DNA of 64,000 bases from Desulfatiglandales bacterium (GTDB lineage Bacteria > Desulfobacterota > DSM-4660 > Desulfatiglandales > Desulfatiglandaceae): the NCBI GenBank assembly GCA_963666345.1, contig OY762721.1:1312001-1376000 (forward strand), written 5' to 3'. Below, piece after piece: positions 30,001-48,000 of the stretch (position 1 is the stretch's first letter; every line of letters starts with the position of its first letter). Made by a program: the position numbers.

Positions 30001-33000
30001 GAAGTAATTGTAGAACGTGCCGATGGAGACTCCGGCCTCGGCCGCGATTTCCTTGGAGTTCGTCCCGTGAAATCCCTTTTGGGCGTAAATGCGCAGTGCC
30101 GCCTCCAGGATGCTTTCCCGGGTGACCAGGCTGCGTTGCTGTTTCGTCTTCCGGCCGCGTTTGTTTTGATTCGATTCCGAAGCGCTCATATCAGGCCCAG
30201 CTTATGATTTTGTCAGGAGCATGGAATAACTCATGGCCGCCTTGGGGCCTTCCCCGACCGTGAATCCGGCGTCGCGGGCGGCCTGTTTCTCCCGCTCAAA
30301 TTCCCTTGCCGAGAAATGCCCTTTGGGTTCCAGGACCAGAAAACGGGCGCATGGTTTAAGCTGCTCGTAGACGTCCTGGAAAAAAGCCGGGATATCGGGC
30401 ACTTCATGCACCATCCAGCAGGCCAGGGCAAAATCAGCCTGCGTTGAAATGTCCAGGTTTTTGGAGCTGCATCTAAGCGCACGGATCCTCTCACCCAGGC
30501 CGCGTTTGCGGGCCCTTTTGGAAAGAATACTCAGCATCTGCCCCTGCAGATCGACCGAGGTTACGCGGCCCTTTTCTCCCACCATTTCGGCCATGGCAAG
30601 GGAGAAAAATCCCATGCCGCAGCCCAGGTCCAGGACATGCATGTCCTCTTTGACGTACGGGCCGACGATCCTGCGCGGATCGTGAATCAGCCTGCGTAGC
30701 CAGTTGTCAAAGAAATAGCCCTTCCACCAGGTGCACACCGAGTGGTTGCATGGTTCGATCAGGGTTGCCTGCTGTGCGTTCATATCTCTCTCCTTTGTAA
30801 AGCGTTGTTTCTAAGAAAATATGAACTATAGTTCACCTTGTCAACAAAAAAAATGAACTAGAGTTCAGTTTTGTATTAAATAAATTGTAACAGGCTGAGA
30901 TATTTCAGGAAATAACCGACAAAGATGAGCGGGGACTGATGTGTACTTGGCACTTTTGCACTTGGGGTCGGGTGCACTTGGGGTCGGGCCATGACAACCT
31001 ATTGATTACACATGATAATCATTCCAAAAATAGCGGTTTACGAGGCCTATATCGCCGTTTTTAGCCCCAAAATTGACGATATAGGGAGTTACCGGCTCCC
31101 GAAGCTCATATCCATTTCCGGATTGTCTTACTTTTCTGCCAATTGCGGCTCCAAGCAAAAGCGATTTTAAATTTTCAACAAAGGTCTTGCTTCCTACACC
31201 TATGCTATCGGTCCATTTTTCATCTCTCTTAGTTTCTGTGCTTCCAATTGACTCCTCTATCCACTCCTTGTAGTGATTCCTCATTGCTTCATAAGAGTTT
31301 ATTCCAAGCAAGGCCCTCAACTTATCGTATTTTATCAACACATTTTTCTTTTTCGGCTTCTGTATTTCATTGTAACCGCAAAAAGGCCACATTGAAGGGT
31401 GCGTCACTACACCAGCTCTTACCATATTTACCCTGTTAAATAAGATTTTAGCCTTCTTTTTATAAACATTTTACCATGGTGTGTTTTGAGATATTTCTCT
31501 CTTCTGGTTGCGTCCTCTTGGTTAAGGCACGCTTCATAATAAATGAGTCTAAGAGGTCTTCGATCTCGCGTTGAATCTACCAATCCCTTACCGTGCTGTT
31601 CAAATCTTAGTTTGAGATCTTTTATAAATCCAGTGTAGAATTTATCATCATATTCACTTTGCAAAACGTAAACGTAGTACATATTATTCTCAAACTATTT
31701 AACAGGGTGAATATCAACATAGACCAGACACCTTAAAAGATGCTCTCCTTCCTCAATGGCAGTAGCATGATAGCGGTCTTCCCAGAAGGCACCCTTTCTA
31801 TTTTTCCTTTGATTGTATTCCTGTCCTGTTCTGCCGGCTATCAATTTGATGGATTTCGGGATAACATCCCTTTCTCCATCATCTGATGCTATCAGGTGTA
31901 TATGGTTTGATGTTACAGCGTAATTAAGGATAGTTAACCCGTAACGTTTTCTTGCCTGGTATAGCCAGTAAAGCCAGCGACGTCGGTCTCTGGCAAACTT
32001 AAGCAGAAATTCCCTTTTATGGCATCGGTGTGTTATATGCCATGTATAACCAGGGATAAAATGCCTTTTTGCTCTTGCCATCACCACAAACCTATAATGC
32101 CCTTTTCGGTATCAAAAATCGCAATATAGGCCTTATTTCAGGCCCTTTTCAGACTTGTTTCTAAGTTATTTCAGAATGTTATCGTGGCCCGACCCCCAAT
32201 CAACCACAAACCTATAATGCCCTTTTTGGTATCAAAAATCGCAATATAGACCCGATTTCAGACCCTTTTCAGACTTCTTTCTAAGTTATTTCAGAATGTT
32301 ATCGTGGCCCGACCCCCAATCCTACAGGATGTTGGGCAGATCTGTTACAATAAACTTAACGTAATTGTATTAATTTCAAAAGGTTTCCCAGTCTCTCCGA
32401 AATGGCTCTTAACCTTATCTGAAAGAGAGATGGGAACTTTATGGCCGTGAATAATTTTATTCGCACCATTTCTGGAAATTCTATAATGAGTACATTTGGG
32501 ACAGATCACGTGTTTGCCGTCGTATCCATTGGGCCGATCAATATTTTTAGTCCCAGCATCATTACACAAAAAACATTTTTGATTCATTTTTTACCTCCGA
32601 AAAGGGACTATCCCAATACACTCCTAAGGTTGATTAAGATAATTATCAATAACCTCCCTATGACCGTTAAATTTGGCATATAGTATTTCCTTAAGACCTC
32701 TTAGCCCTGGTTCCGCAACGAGCCTATCGAATTCAGATGCCTTAAGATTCAATTGCCTGCAATATTTGTCTAAAACTGTTTGTGGAGCTATTCCACCATG
32801 CATTTTTGCTACCTCTTTTGTGGCTTTTGATCTTGGAACACCCGAAAAATGAGTCATATAAACGACTTGTAAAATGTGCTCAAGAGCTTTAGGTGTGCCG
32901 GCAGGAACTGGGGGAAGATTATGACTTGCCGCCTTTCTTGGTTTGAATTGAGTAAGATTTTCACTGCTGGTTTTCCCAAATAAAAGCCTACGTAAAACAT

Positions 33001-45000: not shown

Positions 45001-48000
45001 TCGCTACAAAATCGCCCGGCTCCAAAATTTGCCCTGTATCAATGCTAATGCCCAGAAAAGCCTGCGCTAGGCCCGGATACTTTTGATAGAGGTCAAAGGA
45101 GATACTGCCTATTCCAAAAACCTGAATATTTACCCCTTTTTGCTTGCCTTCATCGTAAAGCTCTTTCTCTTCTTCAGGTGAAAGAAGAGATGTATGGCAG
45201 AAAACAATTTCCTCAATCTCAGTTAATAGAATGCCAGTTTTAGTCTCATCAAGGCATTTACTCAGATCGCCTTTTAATTTAGACGCAATATTCGTTTGGT
45301 CTGTGGTAAATTCTGCAAAAATAAGTTTGCCATTTTTCTGTCGTATATAAGTATCTGGTGTCCCTTTTCGTACTTTATTTGCACCGATCACAGAACCGAT
45401 AGGGTTGATATTGTTATAGCCTTTTTTGTGTATATAACTGTCTGCCAGTTTTTGGAACTCTCCGCATCCAATTTCTTTTAGGGCCTTTTCTATCTGGTTA
45501 ATCTTAGACATCAGAAGTTTATCCTTTCAAACGTCCGCTATGGGTCGAAAAAGGACATTCCCAAGACACATAACGATTGAACTGTGCGGCGCGTTTTTTG
45601 CGTCCGCACCAGTGACAGGTTAGCCAAATTTTTAATCAACTCCCCATATTCTTTTACGTGAGTTGATATAATTTAATAACCGGAAATATCTTGAGGATAG
45701 TTTATCATTTTCAGCCTTTACGTATTTTTGATGCTGAGAGACCACAAAATCATATGCAAGATTTACTACTTCTGTATCAATGGAATTATCTGCCGTTTCC
45801 TTGGATTTTTCCCCCATAAAATCGAGCATGAAACGTCCATCTGTGTCTCTAATAATCATTTCTCTACAAAATTTGGCCATATCTTTTGCCACCAAACCAA
45901 GTCGAGTTTTACACTGTTGATTTTCAACCCATAACAAATAATTTATGAGTTCTTTTCCGACAACAAAACGAGGATACTCAGCTAAATTGCTTTCGATAAA
46001 ATATGCACGTTCAAGCGCTGGCCCATATATTTCCTGTCCTTCGATTTTTGTTCCAATCCCTACATCTAATCCAGCCCGCAAAGCAATAGTGGCAGCTAGG
46101 CTGATAAAACCAATACCACAAGTTGCTACAAGTGCAGAATAAACGCCATTAATGGCAGTACAATTCTCATCGTCACTCATTAGTGGTACAGCGACTATTA
46201 TTGAGTCAGAAAAACTATAAAAATAAACCTCAGATTTTTGTGAAGCTATAAACTCTTCACGATGTTCAGGTGGCACAAGATCGGTATTTGGAATATGCGA
46301 ACTGGAGGCTTTAAAGAAATCACTAAAAGCATTTCTAAGTCTATCAACTTTACCTACTGTTTGGCGTATTTTATCTAAAAAGACCTCTTTTTCCTCCTCA
46401 TTTGTAGGCAAATCTCTAATCTCACGCAATATGCTTCTTTGCCCAAGAATATCGAGAAAAACAATAAGATAGTGTTGAAATACCAAGTCACTTTTATTTT
46501 TTTGATTAATTTTAATATTCATATTTTTATTTGCTAACGGCCCCGCGGATCAGCGGCGGGCGAACGCGCGAGCTTGCTCGCGTGGATGACCGACCGCTGC
46601 ATCCGCTTGATGGCCGGCGCGCAGCGCCGGACAGCATGCGGATGATAATACGCGGGGCCGATGGCACGGCGCATAGCGTCCGTGCCATCTAGTGAGTAGT
46701 GAGAATTATTTCCCGTTTAACAGTAAACGCGACTTTTTTCTCGTTTATTCAATATCCCGGAAGTAATTCTCGTTTATTGAGTCCTCTTGCACCTCTGTGG
46801 AACAAGCCTTTGCACAAAAACCTGTGCATGATTGCCCTAAAAATTGTGCAAATTCGCCGATCATATTTGCTGTCACCTTCTTAAAGTGCTGAATTTTATG
46901 GACATTCTTATCTGGCATGTTTCATGCGTTCTTTTTCTGCATGCGCATGCTGCTAAGAGGTTAATATTACATAATATCACGCCATAAAGCTCGTATATTG
47001 GATTTATTGAAATGAATACCACCTCTAAACCCAAAAAGCTGCTCGACCAGGTCAGGGACGTGCTTCGAGTAAAGCACTACGCATACAGGACCGAGAAAAC
47101 CTACATATTCTGGATTCGCAGATTCATCCTTTTTCATGAAAAGAAACACCCTTCGGAAATGGGCTCAAAGCAAATCCAGGATTTTTTGACACACTTGGCA
47201 GTGGAACGTAACGTCTCCGCCTCCACCCAGAACCAAGCTTTGAACGCTTTAATTTTTCTGTATAAAAAGGTCCTCCGCATTGATTTAACGGATCCCATTG
47301 AAGCCGTCCGCGCCAGACGGCCGACCCGACTTCCGGTCGTGCTTTCCAAACCGGAGGCATTTAAGATCATCGACCTCATTTCCGGCGAGTCTCAACTCAT
47401 CGTCAAGCTCCTCTACGGAAGCGGGCTTCGCCTGATGGAATGCATGCGGCTCCGTGTAAAGGATATCGACTTTTCAATGAACCAGATCCTTGTTCGTCAC
47501 GGTAAGGGCGGAAAGGACCGTGTGACAGTGCTCCCGGCGAATGTCACAGACTCTCTTCAAATGCATTTGAAAAAGGTCAGGGCCATTCATGAAGATGATT
47601 GCAGACATGGATTTGGCCATGTCAATCTTCCCGGGGCTCTCGCCAGAAAATATCCCAATGCCTCTAGTCAATGGGCGTGGCAATTTGTTTTCCCGTCCAG
47701 ATCTCTTTGCAAAGATCCACGCTCCGGAGAAATCCGGCGGCATCACCTGCACGAAAGCTGTGTAAGAAAGGCCCTTAAAAAGGCTGTAACTCTTGCCGAC
47801 ATCCATAAGCAAGTCGGATGCCACTGCTTCCGGCACAGCTTTGCAACTCATCTCCTTGCAGACGGTTACGACATCCGCACTGTGCAGGAGCTGCTCGGGC
47901 ACAAAGACGTTTCCACAACAATGATTTACACGCACGTCCTGAACAAAGGCGGCCGTGCCGTTCGGAGCCCGATCGACTGAGCTATTTGCTGAAGGTCTCA

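Follow-up and report, generated by a model that had tools for sequence, protein, structure and literature searches.

What is the GC-rich repeat of 155 nt that recurs four times in a chromosomal integron of a Desulfatiglandales bacterium (GCA_963666345.1, contig OY762721.1): the recombination site of the gene cassettes beside which it lies, or a mobile unit in its own right? The window analysed here is a stretch of 64,000 nt of that contig (1,312,001–1,376,000), and coordinates are window positions (position 1 being contig position 1,312,001) unless prefixed C1. The note of a genome-wide survey had taken the repeat for an unusually large attC with which four gene cassettes end. We propose that it is probably a gene-less cassette of 151 nt (here called the element) that consists of an attC only, is moved by the integron integrase (IntI) and has been inserted at the crossover points of other recombination sites.

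The integron and its gene cassettes

The window holds one complete chromosomal integron, in which attI adjoins intI and is followed by an array with AAC...GTT attCs. The intI gene is the sole full integron integrase found by a genome-wide search and scores 471.6 bits against the TIGR02249 'integron integrase' profile (cut-off 265), in agreement with the survey, which had described an integron integrase facing a cassette array; the array lies on the minus strand. Three copies of attI without intI, 87–97% alike to that of the window, are present elsewhere in the genome (C1:3100900–3101045, 3275650–3275737 and 3774847–3774925). The two further loci with the repeat, which had been called integrase-less, both retain attI-like remnants and one an intI C-terminal fragment. 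Three attCs of the window are uninterrupted and three are split by the element; the attC filter returns no more than 4 sites in the 16.6 kb of the array. The integron comprises the following features:

47012–47980, plus strand: intI, integron integrase of 322 aa (TIGR02249; Pfam Phage_integrase and Phage_int_SAM_4)
46689–46790, minus strand: attI region, crossover G at 46689 (comparison with the three intI-less attI copies)
45632–46522, minus strand: cassette gene g01191, 296 aa, no family
45568–45625, minus strand: attC of g01191, uninterrupted, R'' GGCTAAC ... R' GTTATGT (attC filter)
41741–45511, minus strand: cassette gene g01190, nSTAND3-type STAND NTPase of 1256 aa (nSTAND3, 25.2 bits)
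41588–41668, minus strand: attC of g01190 to its last G, R' resuming after E2 (L=79, dG -17.5 without E2)
40483–41400, minus strand: cassette gene g01189, 305 aa, no family
40387–40442, minus strand: attC of g01189 to its last G, restored without E3
39558–40211, minus strand: g01188, SAM-dependent methyltransferase (Methyltransf_11, 41.8 bits); whole cassette 39516–40235
39516–39580, minus strand: attC of g01188 to its last G, restored without E4 and matching the duplicate cassette
38648–39346, minus strand: cassette gene g01187, 232 aa, no family
38589–38645, minus strand: attC of g01187, uninterrupted, ending GTTAGGG (attC filter)
37532–38587, minus strand: g01186, gene in the array, 351 aa, no family
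33292–37104, minus strand: g01185, divergent Upx-like protein of 1270 aa with a C-terminal D...ExK core (profile and homologue alignment)
33197–33244, minus strand: short attC after g01185, ending GTTGGGC (attC filter)
32624–33103, minus strand: last clear cassette gene, 159 aa, SeqA_N-like N-terminus (SeqA_N, 26.3 bits, cut-off 23)

The short attC hairpins ending in GTTATGT, GTTAGGG and GTTGGGC that the survey had recorded were all recovered, and in the 427-nt spacer that follows g01186 the filter detected none. The attC type of g01191 also occurs with other flanks on many contigs, from four sequencing runs, and an attC near-identical to that of g01189 is present in genome L061, where another variant of the element comes after it.

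A discrete unit at crossover points

Six copies of the repeat are present in the genome, as the survey had counted: four in the window array (46535–46689, 41434–41588, 40233–40387 and 39362–39516, all on the minus strand), identical across 155 nt except for a single C/T in a loop, and two outside the window (C1:3098499–3098652, 99%; C1:3278073–3278226, 86%). The description of a repeat closing with GTTA applies to the four window copies, but the other two run into GTTG and GTTC. The 155 nt can be divided into a unit of 151 nt, a preceding G and a trailing TTA, the latter two being derived from the target site, and the unit itself occupies the following positions in the window:

46538–46688, minus strand: E1, 151-nt gene-less cassette in attI, first array position; missing from the homologous attI at locus 2
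41437–41587, minus strand: E2, 151-nt gene-less cassette (repeat match; attC restored after in silico removal)
40236–40386, minus strand: E3, 151-nt gene-less cassette (same evidence)
39365–39515, minus strand: E4, 151-nt gene-less cassette (same evidence)

All six copies lie directly 5' of GTT and in the orientation of the cassette genes, in six contexts in this genome and in more in other genomes, and a G precedes five of the six. In copy 6 the preceding base is an A that pairs with T, which suggests that this base is part of the element rather than of its target. Because of the minus-strand orientation of the cassette genes, the copy that had been placed after g01191 is actually upstream of it, between attI and its start codon. 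In this genome, the element always follows another attC or attI and never lies directly 3' of a cassette gene; each of the four gene cassettes thought to end in the repeat has its own complete short attC, and the repeat is a separate unit at G|TT.

An empty site is provided by a second locus of the genome (locus 2), where the attI homologue reads ...CTCACTA-G|TTAGCCC and is joined at its crossover G, without the 151-nt unit, straight to the TTAGCCC... of a methyltransferase cassette; in the window the same attI is followed by the 151 nt and then by G|TTAGCA. On contigs of the sequencing runs X1 and X6, attI is joined at G 46689 to other cassettes. Neither an excised circle nor a polymorphic empty site was seen in the contigs of the sequencing runs, which were searched as contigs and not as reads. 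The methyltransferase cassette is itself duplicated (C1:3101037–3101767; 731 nt, 99.45% alike, in keeping with the 99.5% given by the survey), and the two copies match between G|TT and the last attC G, with elements flanking one copy and not the other.

When the 151 nt are removed in silico, a single AAC...GTT hairpin is restored across the junction in four of the six copies, and in all three of the window copies that adjoin an attC. The exceptions are E1, which sits in attI, and E5, which yields no attC hairpin and has no attC upstream that the same filter could recognise. At the attC of g01190, the R' beyond E2 (GTTATG) is exactly complementary to the R'' (CATAAC). The element copies are 99–100% identical although the attCs that they adjoin are unrelated.

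We propose that the integron integrase would excise the element as a small circle, which would then be inserted at G|WT crossovers, either in attI (E1) or in the R' of other attCs (E2–E4 and two copies elsewhere), so that each host attC would be separated from its R' half; copies could accumulate because integration is resolved by replication. The junctions of the element fit both the published tolerance of IntI1 for a change of the second or third triplet base in one partner (PMC2811028) and the insertion of cassettes by IntI1–3 at genomic 5'-GWT-3' sites (bioRxiv 10.1101/2022.09.11.507474), and we count this in favour of an IntI-moved cassette. The resemblance to such off-platform insertion at attG sites lies in the junctions G|TT and G|AT and extends to another genome, G149, in which eight of ten right junctions are GWT (G|AT in five copies, G|TT in three, G|GT in one and G|GG in one). 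The off-platform work, as described there, employed IntI1–3 and resistance cassettes in E. coli, whereas insertion of the element is deduced from junction sequences alone. We infer that IntI would be the catalyst, and the element appears to be selfish or neutral, without use to its host.

Fold, relatives and competing explanations

The element has a GC content of 70%, and a 206-nt stretch containing it folds as DNA with -63 kcal/mol (z -7.2), a value equalled by none of 200 shuffles. Its 5' end forms a perfect 13-bp hairpin whose 5' arm begins the cassette (ATGGCAC...) and whose 3' arm is the element's own inverse-core-like box (...GTGCCATC), and a GC stem of 9–12 bp closes a three-way junction with two arms. 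The usual integron cassette core is GTT/AAC. In the element, R'' reads ATC in five copies and ATT in copy 6, no AAC triplet occurs anywhere in the six copies of this genome, and a perfect 9-bp stem stands against the triplet, without a visible unpaired central spacer or visible extrahelical bases. The missing canonical attC features of the copies in this genome speak against our reading. The last base is a G, the GTT at the end being half target-derived; in a circular form, this G and the first bases would give a GAT core instead of GTT, and we read the core as a GAT/ATC variant of the usual one. The element is non-coding: its homologues share no open frame, and the differences in length between them are not multiples of 3.

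A search of 104 genomes from the same family gave relatives in 19, and one of 150 genomes sampled from the phylum gave them in 10; they keep the hairpin and the three-way junction through compensatory changes. Among 15 homologues, 85.3% of cells are paired, compared with 27–45% for slid partners, 17 of the 45 pairs have changed on both sides, and such pairing support is reached by none of 500 shuffles. About half of the relatives have the canonical cassette ends TT...AAC...G|TT, which take the form TT...RYYYAAC...G|TT in L029, L030 and G003; AAC/GTT triplets are present in these three and in L023, and other relatives have AAT with a final A. The 21 hairpins listed comprise ten with G|AT...AT and ten with G|TT...AA, always complementary, and one that is ambiguous.

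In L023, a 190-aa ORF stops ~10 nt before the branched domain, which lies between ATCTAAC and GTTAAAC. Because it directly follows this ORF within a RYYYAAC/GTT frame, the branched part is probably a long attC type, and we infer that the whole body of the element would be a long branched attC, making it a cassette without other content. To this extent the earlier idea of a large attC survives, but the distance from R'' to R' (~127–133 nt) is not exceptional, since the attC variable regions (VTS) described in PMC4889954 reach 100 nt (range 20–100 nt). Like the Vibrio repeats and other long attCs, the element has a large variable region, capable of folding, between inverse core and core, with direct post-gene use in L023; unlike them, it has a three-way junction, a perfect GC closing stem, no visible central spacer or extrahelical bases and, in this genome, an inverse core of ATC or ATT instead of AAC. 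It also resembles the gene-less cassettes described from Vibrionaceae superintegrons and an oral metagenome (PMC11014356; PMC6557892) in having no gene, array orientation and crossover boundaries. Those of PMC11014356 were chosen for lacking ORFs of >= 70 aa, and most of them have promoter activity, whereas the element has 151 nt of 70% GC that are almost entirely conserved fold, no promoter-like signal, six copies in one genome and conservation across families of a phylum.

Three other explanations have to be weighed. The element might be MITE- or REP-like, that is non-autonomous and moved as single-stranded DNA or hairpin by a non-IntI enzyme (for instance a Y1/HUH transposase or a recombinase of the IS110/IS1111 type) that would happen to target G|WT at att sites, which we consider unlikely. 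The ten dispersed copies of G149 lie outside obvious arrays and two of them (L070 and L077) are flanked by 9-nt direct repeats; the terminal hairpin reaches right to one end of the element; and a RAYT-like Y1 transposase gene is present at 31695–32087 (58.2 bits, cut-off 80), although it is flanked by another repeat family. Nor is IntI enriched at the genome level: at E <= 1e-60 it is found in 11 of the 20 family genomes that contain the element and in 59 of 105 overall. However, half or so of the relatives end exactly as cassettes do, and inserting into attI as well as attC, precisely at the base that IntI cuts, is IntI behaviour. Elements that target attCs are known, namely IS1111-attC and group IIC-attC introns, and share with the element a specificity for cassette recombination sites and the presence of several per array; but as described in PMC3001079 they measure 1–2 kb, bring their own enzyme and lie near the attC 5' end in antisense, whereas the element, of 151 nt and without a gene, occupies the 3' crossover in sense. 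With no conserved frame and no Rfam family, intron or other, at E <= 1, it does not belong to either group.

That the interior is cargo, working as a structured RNA or as a regulatory 5' leader of the cassette downstream, with the three-way junction selected as RNA and only the closing stem and the triplets serving recombination, seems to us quite improbable. Compensatory changes suit RNA as well as DNA, the copies end 12–40 nt ahead of the next start codon, and gene-less cassettes of Vibrio influence the expression of their neighbours (PMC11014356). Moreover, 'mini' relatives (L011 and L017) lack both arms and keep the hairpin and closing stem, so that location at GTT does not require the arms. 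Against an RNA speak the lack of an Rfam match and the promoter-like (13 found, 17.1 expected) and terminator-like sites (10 found, 8.8 expected), neither of which exceeds chance, and we take the structure for a recombination site. Finally, that the repeat is the long attC of the upstream gene cassette, one sedentary-integron attC class common to four cassettes, would suit its place between cassette genes, its terminal GTT and L023, where the branched domain is the only attC-like site after the gene, but it is already contradicted by the empty attI and the element-free cassette duplicate at locus 2, and with E1 having no cassette upstream, short attCs of the upstream genes re-formed in 3/3 cases and near-identical elements next to dissimilar attCs, it is very improbable.

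Two giant cassette genes

The survey had suggested an anti-phage function for two giant ORFs, g01190 and g01185. For g01190, its nSTAND3 score of 25.2 bits was reproduced and falls just under the cut-off of PF20720 (27.2). There are 690 homologues, and by our count PF20720 is present in 97 of the 120 listed, at 42–82% identity over the full length (~1255 aa); the nearest atlas clusters are nSTAND3 as well. Judged by these homologues, g01190 is probably a full-length nSTAND3 NTPase.

The survey's E-value of 4.9e-6 for g01185 against PADLOC Upx was likewise obtained again (22.1 bits), but its verdict of no family has to be revised, the protein being Upx-like with 152 homologues. Upx is described as a single-protein PD-(D/E)XK anti-phage nuclease (PMC13099982). 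The match to NCBIfam Upx (NF042954) covers residues 1141–1214 only, at 31 bits for a cut-off of 1900, and is not full-length. D1150, E1165 and K1167, which we assign to the motif, are invariant in 18 homologues, and a profile of g01185 matches PDB 9wuf_A (1272 aa) colinearly (E 8.8e-9, residues 752–1052 against 762–1072). All 30 nearest atlas clusters are Upx-like. By sequence, g01185 is a divergent Upx-like nuclease and a full-length member of a large family, with the C-terminal PD-(D/E)XK core (D...ExK) and ~1250-aa architecture, while similarity to Upx is detectable in the C-terminal and middle parts only. Cassette-borne defence has already been described; both giant ORFs belong, as far as their homologues indicate, to known defence-type protein families, and a defence role is plausible for each.

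The integron and its GC-rich repeat

One complete integron lies in the window, with the sole full integrase copy of the 4.16-Mb genome, and its cassette genes are all on the minus strand, running leftwards from ~46520 to ~32600. A GC-rich repeat occurs four times in this array and twice elsewhere in the genome, each copy containing a gene-less unit of 151 nt (elements E1 to E6).

Features of the integron and copies of the repeat (window positions; C1, whole-genome contig coordinates)
47012-47980, plus strand: intI, integron integrase (NCBIfam TIGR02249, 471.6 bits, cut-off 265)
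46535-46689, minus strand: repeat with E1 (46538-46688), in attI; repeat search
41741-45511, minus strand: g01190, 1256 aa, nSTAND3 25.2 bits against a cut-off of 27.2
41434-41588, minus strand: repeat with E2 (41437-41587); repeat search
40233-40387, minus strand: repeat with E3 (40236-40386); repeat search
39362-39516, minus strand: repeat with E4 (39365-39515); repeat search
33292-37104, minus strand: g01185, 1270 aa, Upx-like
C1:3098499-3098652: repeat with E5, 99% identical
C1:3278073-3278226: repeat with E6, 86% identical

The four window copies differ at a single loop position over 155 nt and have unrelated flanks. The copy nearest intI sits past attI and ahead of the first gene, no cassette lies upstream of it, and on the coding (minus) strand the next start codon follows the repeat end at a distance of 12-40 nt. 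Folded as DNA, a 206-nt stretch around one copy reaches -63 kcal/mol, against -39.4 +/- 3.3 for its shuffles (z -7.2; 0 of 200 as good), and the structure is a perfect hairpin and, after it, a three-way junction with a 9-bp GC closing stem. The genome-wide survey's note had reported a GC-rich folded repeat with four copies in the array and two elsewhere; the copy counts and fold statistics reproduce all of this, and the observation is therefore confirmed.

Copies of the attI region without intI are present elsewhere in the genome, as found by sequence search. The ~170 nt directly downstream of intI (window 48001-48171) also recur at four other sites with 81-84% identity (C1:3100487-3100654, 3774631-3774804, 3625194-3625326 and 3096916-3097048), and two of these copies adjoin intI-less attI remnants. 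This distribution suggests that the genome carries several decayed integron platforms. In addition, a 42-aa open frame at C1:3097163-3097258, near the second array, matches positions 283-314 only of the integron-integrase model (31 bits) and is a C-terminal remnant of intI.

Insertion of the unit at the crossover base

The same note had taken the repeat to be the attC of the gene upstream of it. This assignment is contradicted by an empty site, by the borders of a duplicated cassette and by removal of the unit in silico. At C1:3100880-3101045, an empty attI, ...CTCACTACTCACTA-G, is joined straight to TTAGCCC..., with which a duplicate of the methyltransferase cassette (gene g01188 in the window) begins; the window's version of this attI has 151 additional bases after it and then G|TTAGCA. 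In contigs of two sequencing runs, X1 (which may be the genome's own source sample) and X6, attI is joined to other cassettes at base 46689, seen as loose ends at that position. The two copies of the methyltransferase cassette are 99.45% identical over 731 nt, and this identity begins at G|TT and ends at the last G of the attC. The window copy has the element on either side; at locus 2, the place of the empty attI, the cassette is bordered by attI at one end and by group II intron RNA domains at the other.

Upstream of E2-E4 and E6 stands an apparently complete short attC that lacks only R'; in one example, R'' (CATAAC) is followed by a spacer of 5 nt, an imperfect stem containing a bulged base, a further spacer and G. 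In four of the six copies (E2, E3, E4 and E6), removal of the 151 nt in silico restored one AAC...GTT hairpin spanning the junction; E5 gave no restored hairpin, and E1 lies in attI. The same hairpin filter, run over 16.6 kb of the array, returned only four sites. For the attC of g01190, the R' on the far side of the element (GTTATG) complements R'' (CATAAC) exactly. The empty site, the cassette borders and the in-silico removal thus identify the unit as a separate 151-nt insertion at the exact base of strand exchange by integron integrases.

Relatives of the element and its reading as a gene-less cassette

Of 104 other genomes in the family, 8 hold BLAST relatives, and an exact 23-mer search returned seven public contigs, including a 'Deltaproteobacteria' MAG with a full-length copy that is 88% identical. 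Two Nitrospiraceae MAGs (L029 and L030) hold full-length copies of ~70% identity and a third (L025) a partial one, and three further public records have only the last 23-31 nt in common. A covariance model of the branched domain (R1) detected it in 19 of 104 other family genomes (E <= 1e-3) and, across several families, in 10 of 150 genomes drawn from the phylum (E <= 1e-5). When 15 copies of this domain were aligned (A2), 85.3% of cells paired, compared with 27-45% when partners were slid by 1-3 columns, and both sides had changed in 17 of 45 pairs; the observed values were reached by 0 of 500 shuffles, a result that is not a probability because the sequences are related.

In the hairpin, the opening bases of the unit pair with a box that immediately precedes the closing stem. 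Of 21 hairpins compared, ten are of the form G|AT...AT and ten of the form G|TT...AA, with one ambiguous, and the two positions are always complementary. The TT...AA class has canonical cassette ends: L030 and L029 read G|TTGAGCC ... (A/T)CTCAAC, closing stem, G|TTA, that is, core site, inverse core and core. Moreover, the inverse core's third base and the final base of the unit covary; they form the crossover base pair itself. AAC occurs with a final G in L029, L030 and genome G003, and AAT with a final A in L013, G087a, G078, G092a, G092b and G100; G087b is an exception. When this pair was compared by locus, L013, L038, L044, L047, L061 and L048 had AAT and A before TT, whereas L029, L030 and L045 had AAC and G.

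At L023, ATCTAAC lies ~10 nt past the stop of a 190-aa ORF and is followed by the branched domain and GTTAAAC, with no other attC at that ORF; here the branched domain resembles an ordinary gene cassette's attC. As a case of repeated insertion into one attC type, L061 carries an attC near-identical to that of g01189, followed by a different element variant starting G|TT (judged by eye). 'Mini' versions of ~60 nt (L011 1501-1562; L017 ~737-792) keep the hairpin and the closing stem, have a 10-nt loop in place of both arms, and continue with GTT. Genome G149, which carries an IntI, holds ten copies dispersed over nine contigs (L070-L079) and not clustered in one array, with right junctions G|AT (five), G|TT (three), G|GT (one) and G|GG (one).

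In the simplest reading, the element would be a cassette that has no gene and consists entirely of its own recombination site. In a circle of the unit, the terminal G would meet the first bases, ATGGCAC, to create a core pairing with the box GTGCCATC, and the hairpin would be that R-box closed on itself. IntI, to which we attribute the catalysis by inference, would insert the circle at attI, the preferred reaction, or at R' of other attCs; the place of E1 in the first array position fits this preference. The odd GAT core is plausible because IntI1 is reported to recombine near wild-type level when the second or third triplet base is changed in one partner (PMC2811028), and because insertion of cassettes by IntI1-3 at genomic 5'-GWT-3' sites has been described (bioRxiv 10.1101/2022.09.11.507474). 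The insertions could alter how easily neighbouring cassettes are excised.

Several points speak against the cassette reading. The element's own copies have no central spacer and no extrahelical bases, and inspection by eye found no AAC within the repeat or on its left border, the flanking AAC at E2 being that of the host attC. The base before E6 is an A, paired with T, and E5 has no recognisable attC upstream. IntI is not enriched with the element (11 of 20 element-bearing family genomes, compared with 59 of 105, many of them fragmented MAGs), and no excised form was seen in the contigs of the four sequencing runs. At two G149 copies (L070 and L077), the flanks carry 9-nt direct repeats for which we have no explanation.

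An xAAC target on the other strand and the terminal hairpin raised IS200/IS605-PATE and IS91-like readings, which were set aside because the relatives have cassette ends. Unlike IS1111-attC elements and group IIC-attC introns, which are described as lying near the attC 5' end, antisense, and encoding their own enzymes (PMC3001079), the element is gene-less and sits at the crossover. A RAYT-like gene at the array end (31695-32087) was rejected as its partner, the repeats flanking that gene being of a different family. Promoter or terminator signals were no more frequent than in shuffles, and a coding role was rejected because no frame is open across homologues. Rfam, searched in E-value mode over 29000-50000, has no family in the element; its sole match is a chance snoRNA (E 0.38) inside g01190.

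Going beyond the gene-less cassette, the element could be a minimal selfish replicator, a recombination-site-only cassette that parasitises IntI, multiplies in arrays and attI and crosses families and phyla; we consider this possible but rather doubtful. It would imply escape to ordinary G|WT sites in some genomes, and spread across phyla, given the copies found both in this phylum and among Nitrospiraceae MAGs. By parting host attCs from their R' halves with a GAT/ATC core, such a replicator may also determine which neighbouring cassettes stay excisable.

Cassettes without a gene are known and reported often to carry promoters (PMC11014356, PMC6557892), yet they are poorly understood; in the open-access literature searched, we found no account of an attC-only cassette family that is conserved and structured and multiplies within arrays. 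The size of 151 nt, the conservation and the repetition would make a clean natural test case for how little DNA makes a cassette and whether integrons have parasites of their own. Elements within the attCs of other cassettes create composite sites, which automated integron annotation is likely to mis-call as one long attC, as the survey's note did. The natural GAT/ATC and AAT/A variants offer ready substrates for asking how strict environmental integrases are on the conserved triplet.

Giant genes and the end of the array

The survey's note found no family for g01185, a view that does not hold: it has 152 homologues (E <= 1e-3), all 30 of its nearest atlas clusters are Upx-like, and NCBIfam and PADLOC Upx models match its residues 1141-1214. 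Among the 120 homologues listed, most are ~1250 aa and three carry PF28173 (Upx-like). D1150, E1165 and K1167 are invariant in 18 homologues, and the family profile is colinear with PDB 9wuf_A, a 1272-aa 'restriction endonuclease' (E 8.8e-9). Upx is described as a characterised single-protein PD-(D/E)XK anti-phage nuclease (PMC13099982). Similarly, g01190 has 690 homologues (E <= 1e-3); of the 120 listed, most are full-length proteins of ~1255 aa, and 97 carry PF20720 by our count. Its nearest atlas clusters are also nSTAND3.

With a mapped attC on either side, g01190 makes up a single-gene cassette of ~4 kb. The AAC...GTT filter found no attC in the 427-nt spacer between g01186 and g01185 (window 37105-37531), so these genes may share one cassette, or a decayed attC may lie between them. 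By homology, both giant genes are new members of known families and candidate defence genes. These two 3.8-kb cassettes would add large single-protein genes of defence type (Upx-like and nSTAND3) to the integron-borne defence candidates, an established theme for which cassette genes have been described (bioRxiv 10.1101/2024.07.02.601686).

Array end and nearby group II introns (window positions unless marked)
31428-31682: GIY-YIG gene
31695-32087: RAYT/IS200-like Y1 transposase (NF047646, 58.2 bits, cut-off 80)
within 31006-32321, with the two preceding: 139-aa ORF
C1:3101840-3102224 (L032 7841-8225): group II intron domains at locus 2 (RF02001, 83.7 bits; RF01998, 49.7 bits)
L033 9106-9841: ORF-less group II intron one cassette downstream of E6 (RF02005, 105 bits, and domain V)

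Two tandem 119-nt repeats (32083-32321), with relatives at at least ten other places in the genome, precede the array-end genes. After the attC of g01185 and upstream of a 159-aa SeqA_N-like gene, a TTGACA ... TATATT pair was seen by eye (33104-33196, a stretch outside the promoter scan) and may be a cassette-borne promoter. At locus 2, the intron domains begin soon after the final G of the attC in the methyltransferase cassette, in sense orientation, with no reverse-transcriptase ORF nearby. The short attC of g01191 (about 45571-45627) occurs with different flanks in many contigs of all four sequencing runs, and its summed depth in X1 is 58, compared with 8.4 for the gene beside it; this attC type is therefore common in the samples.
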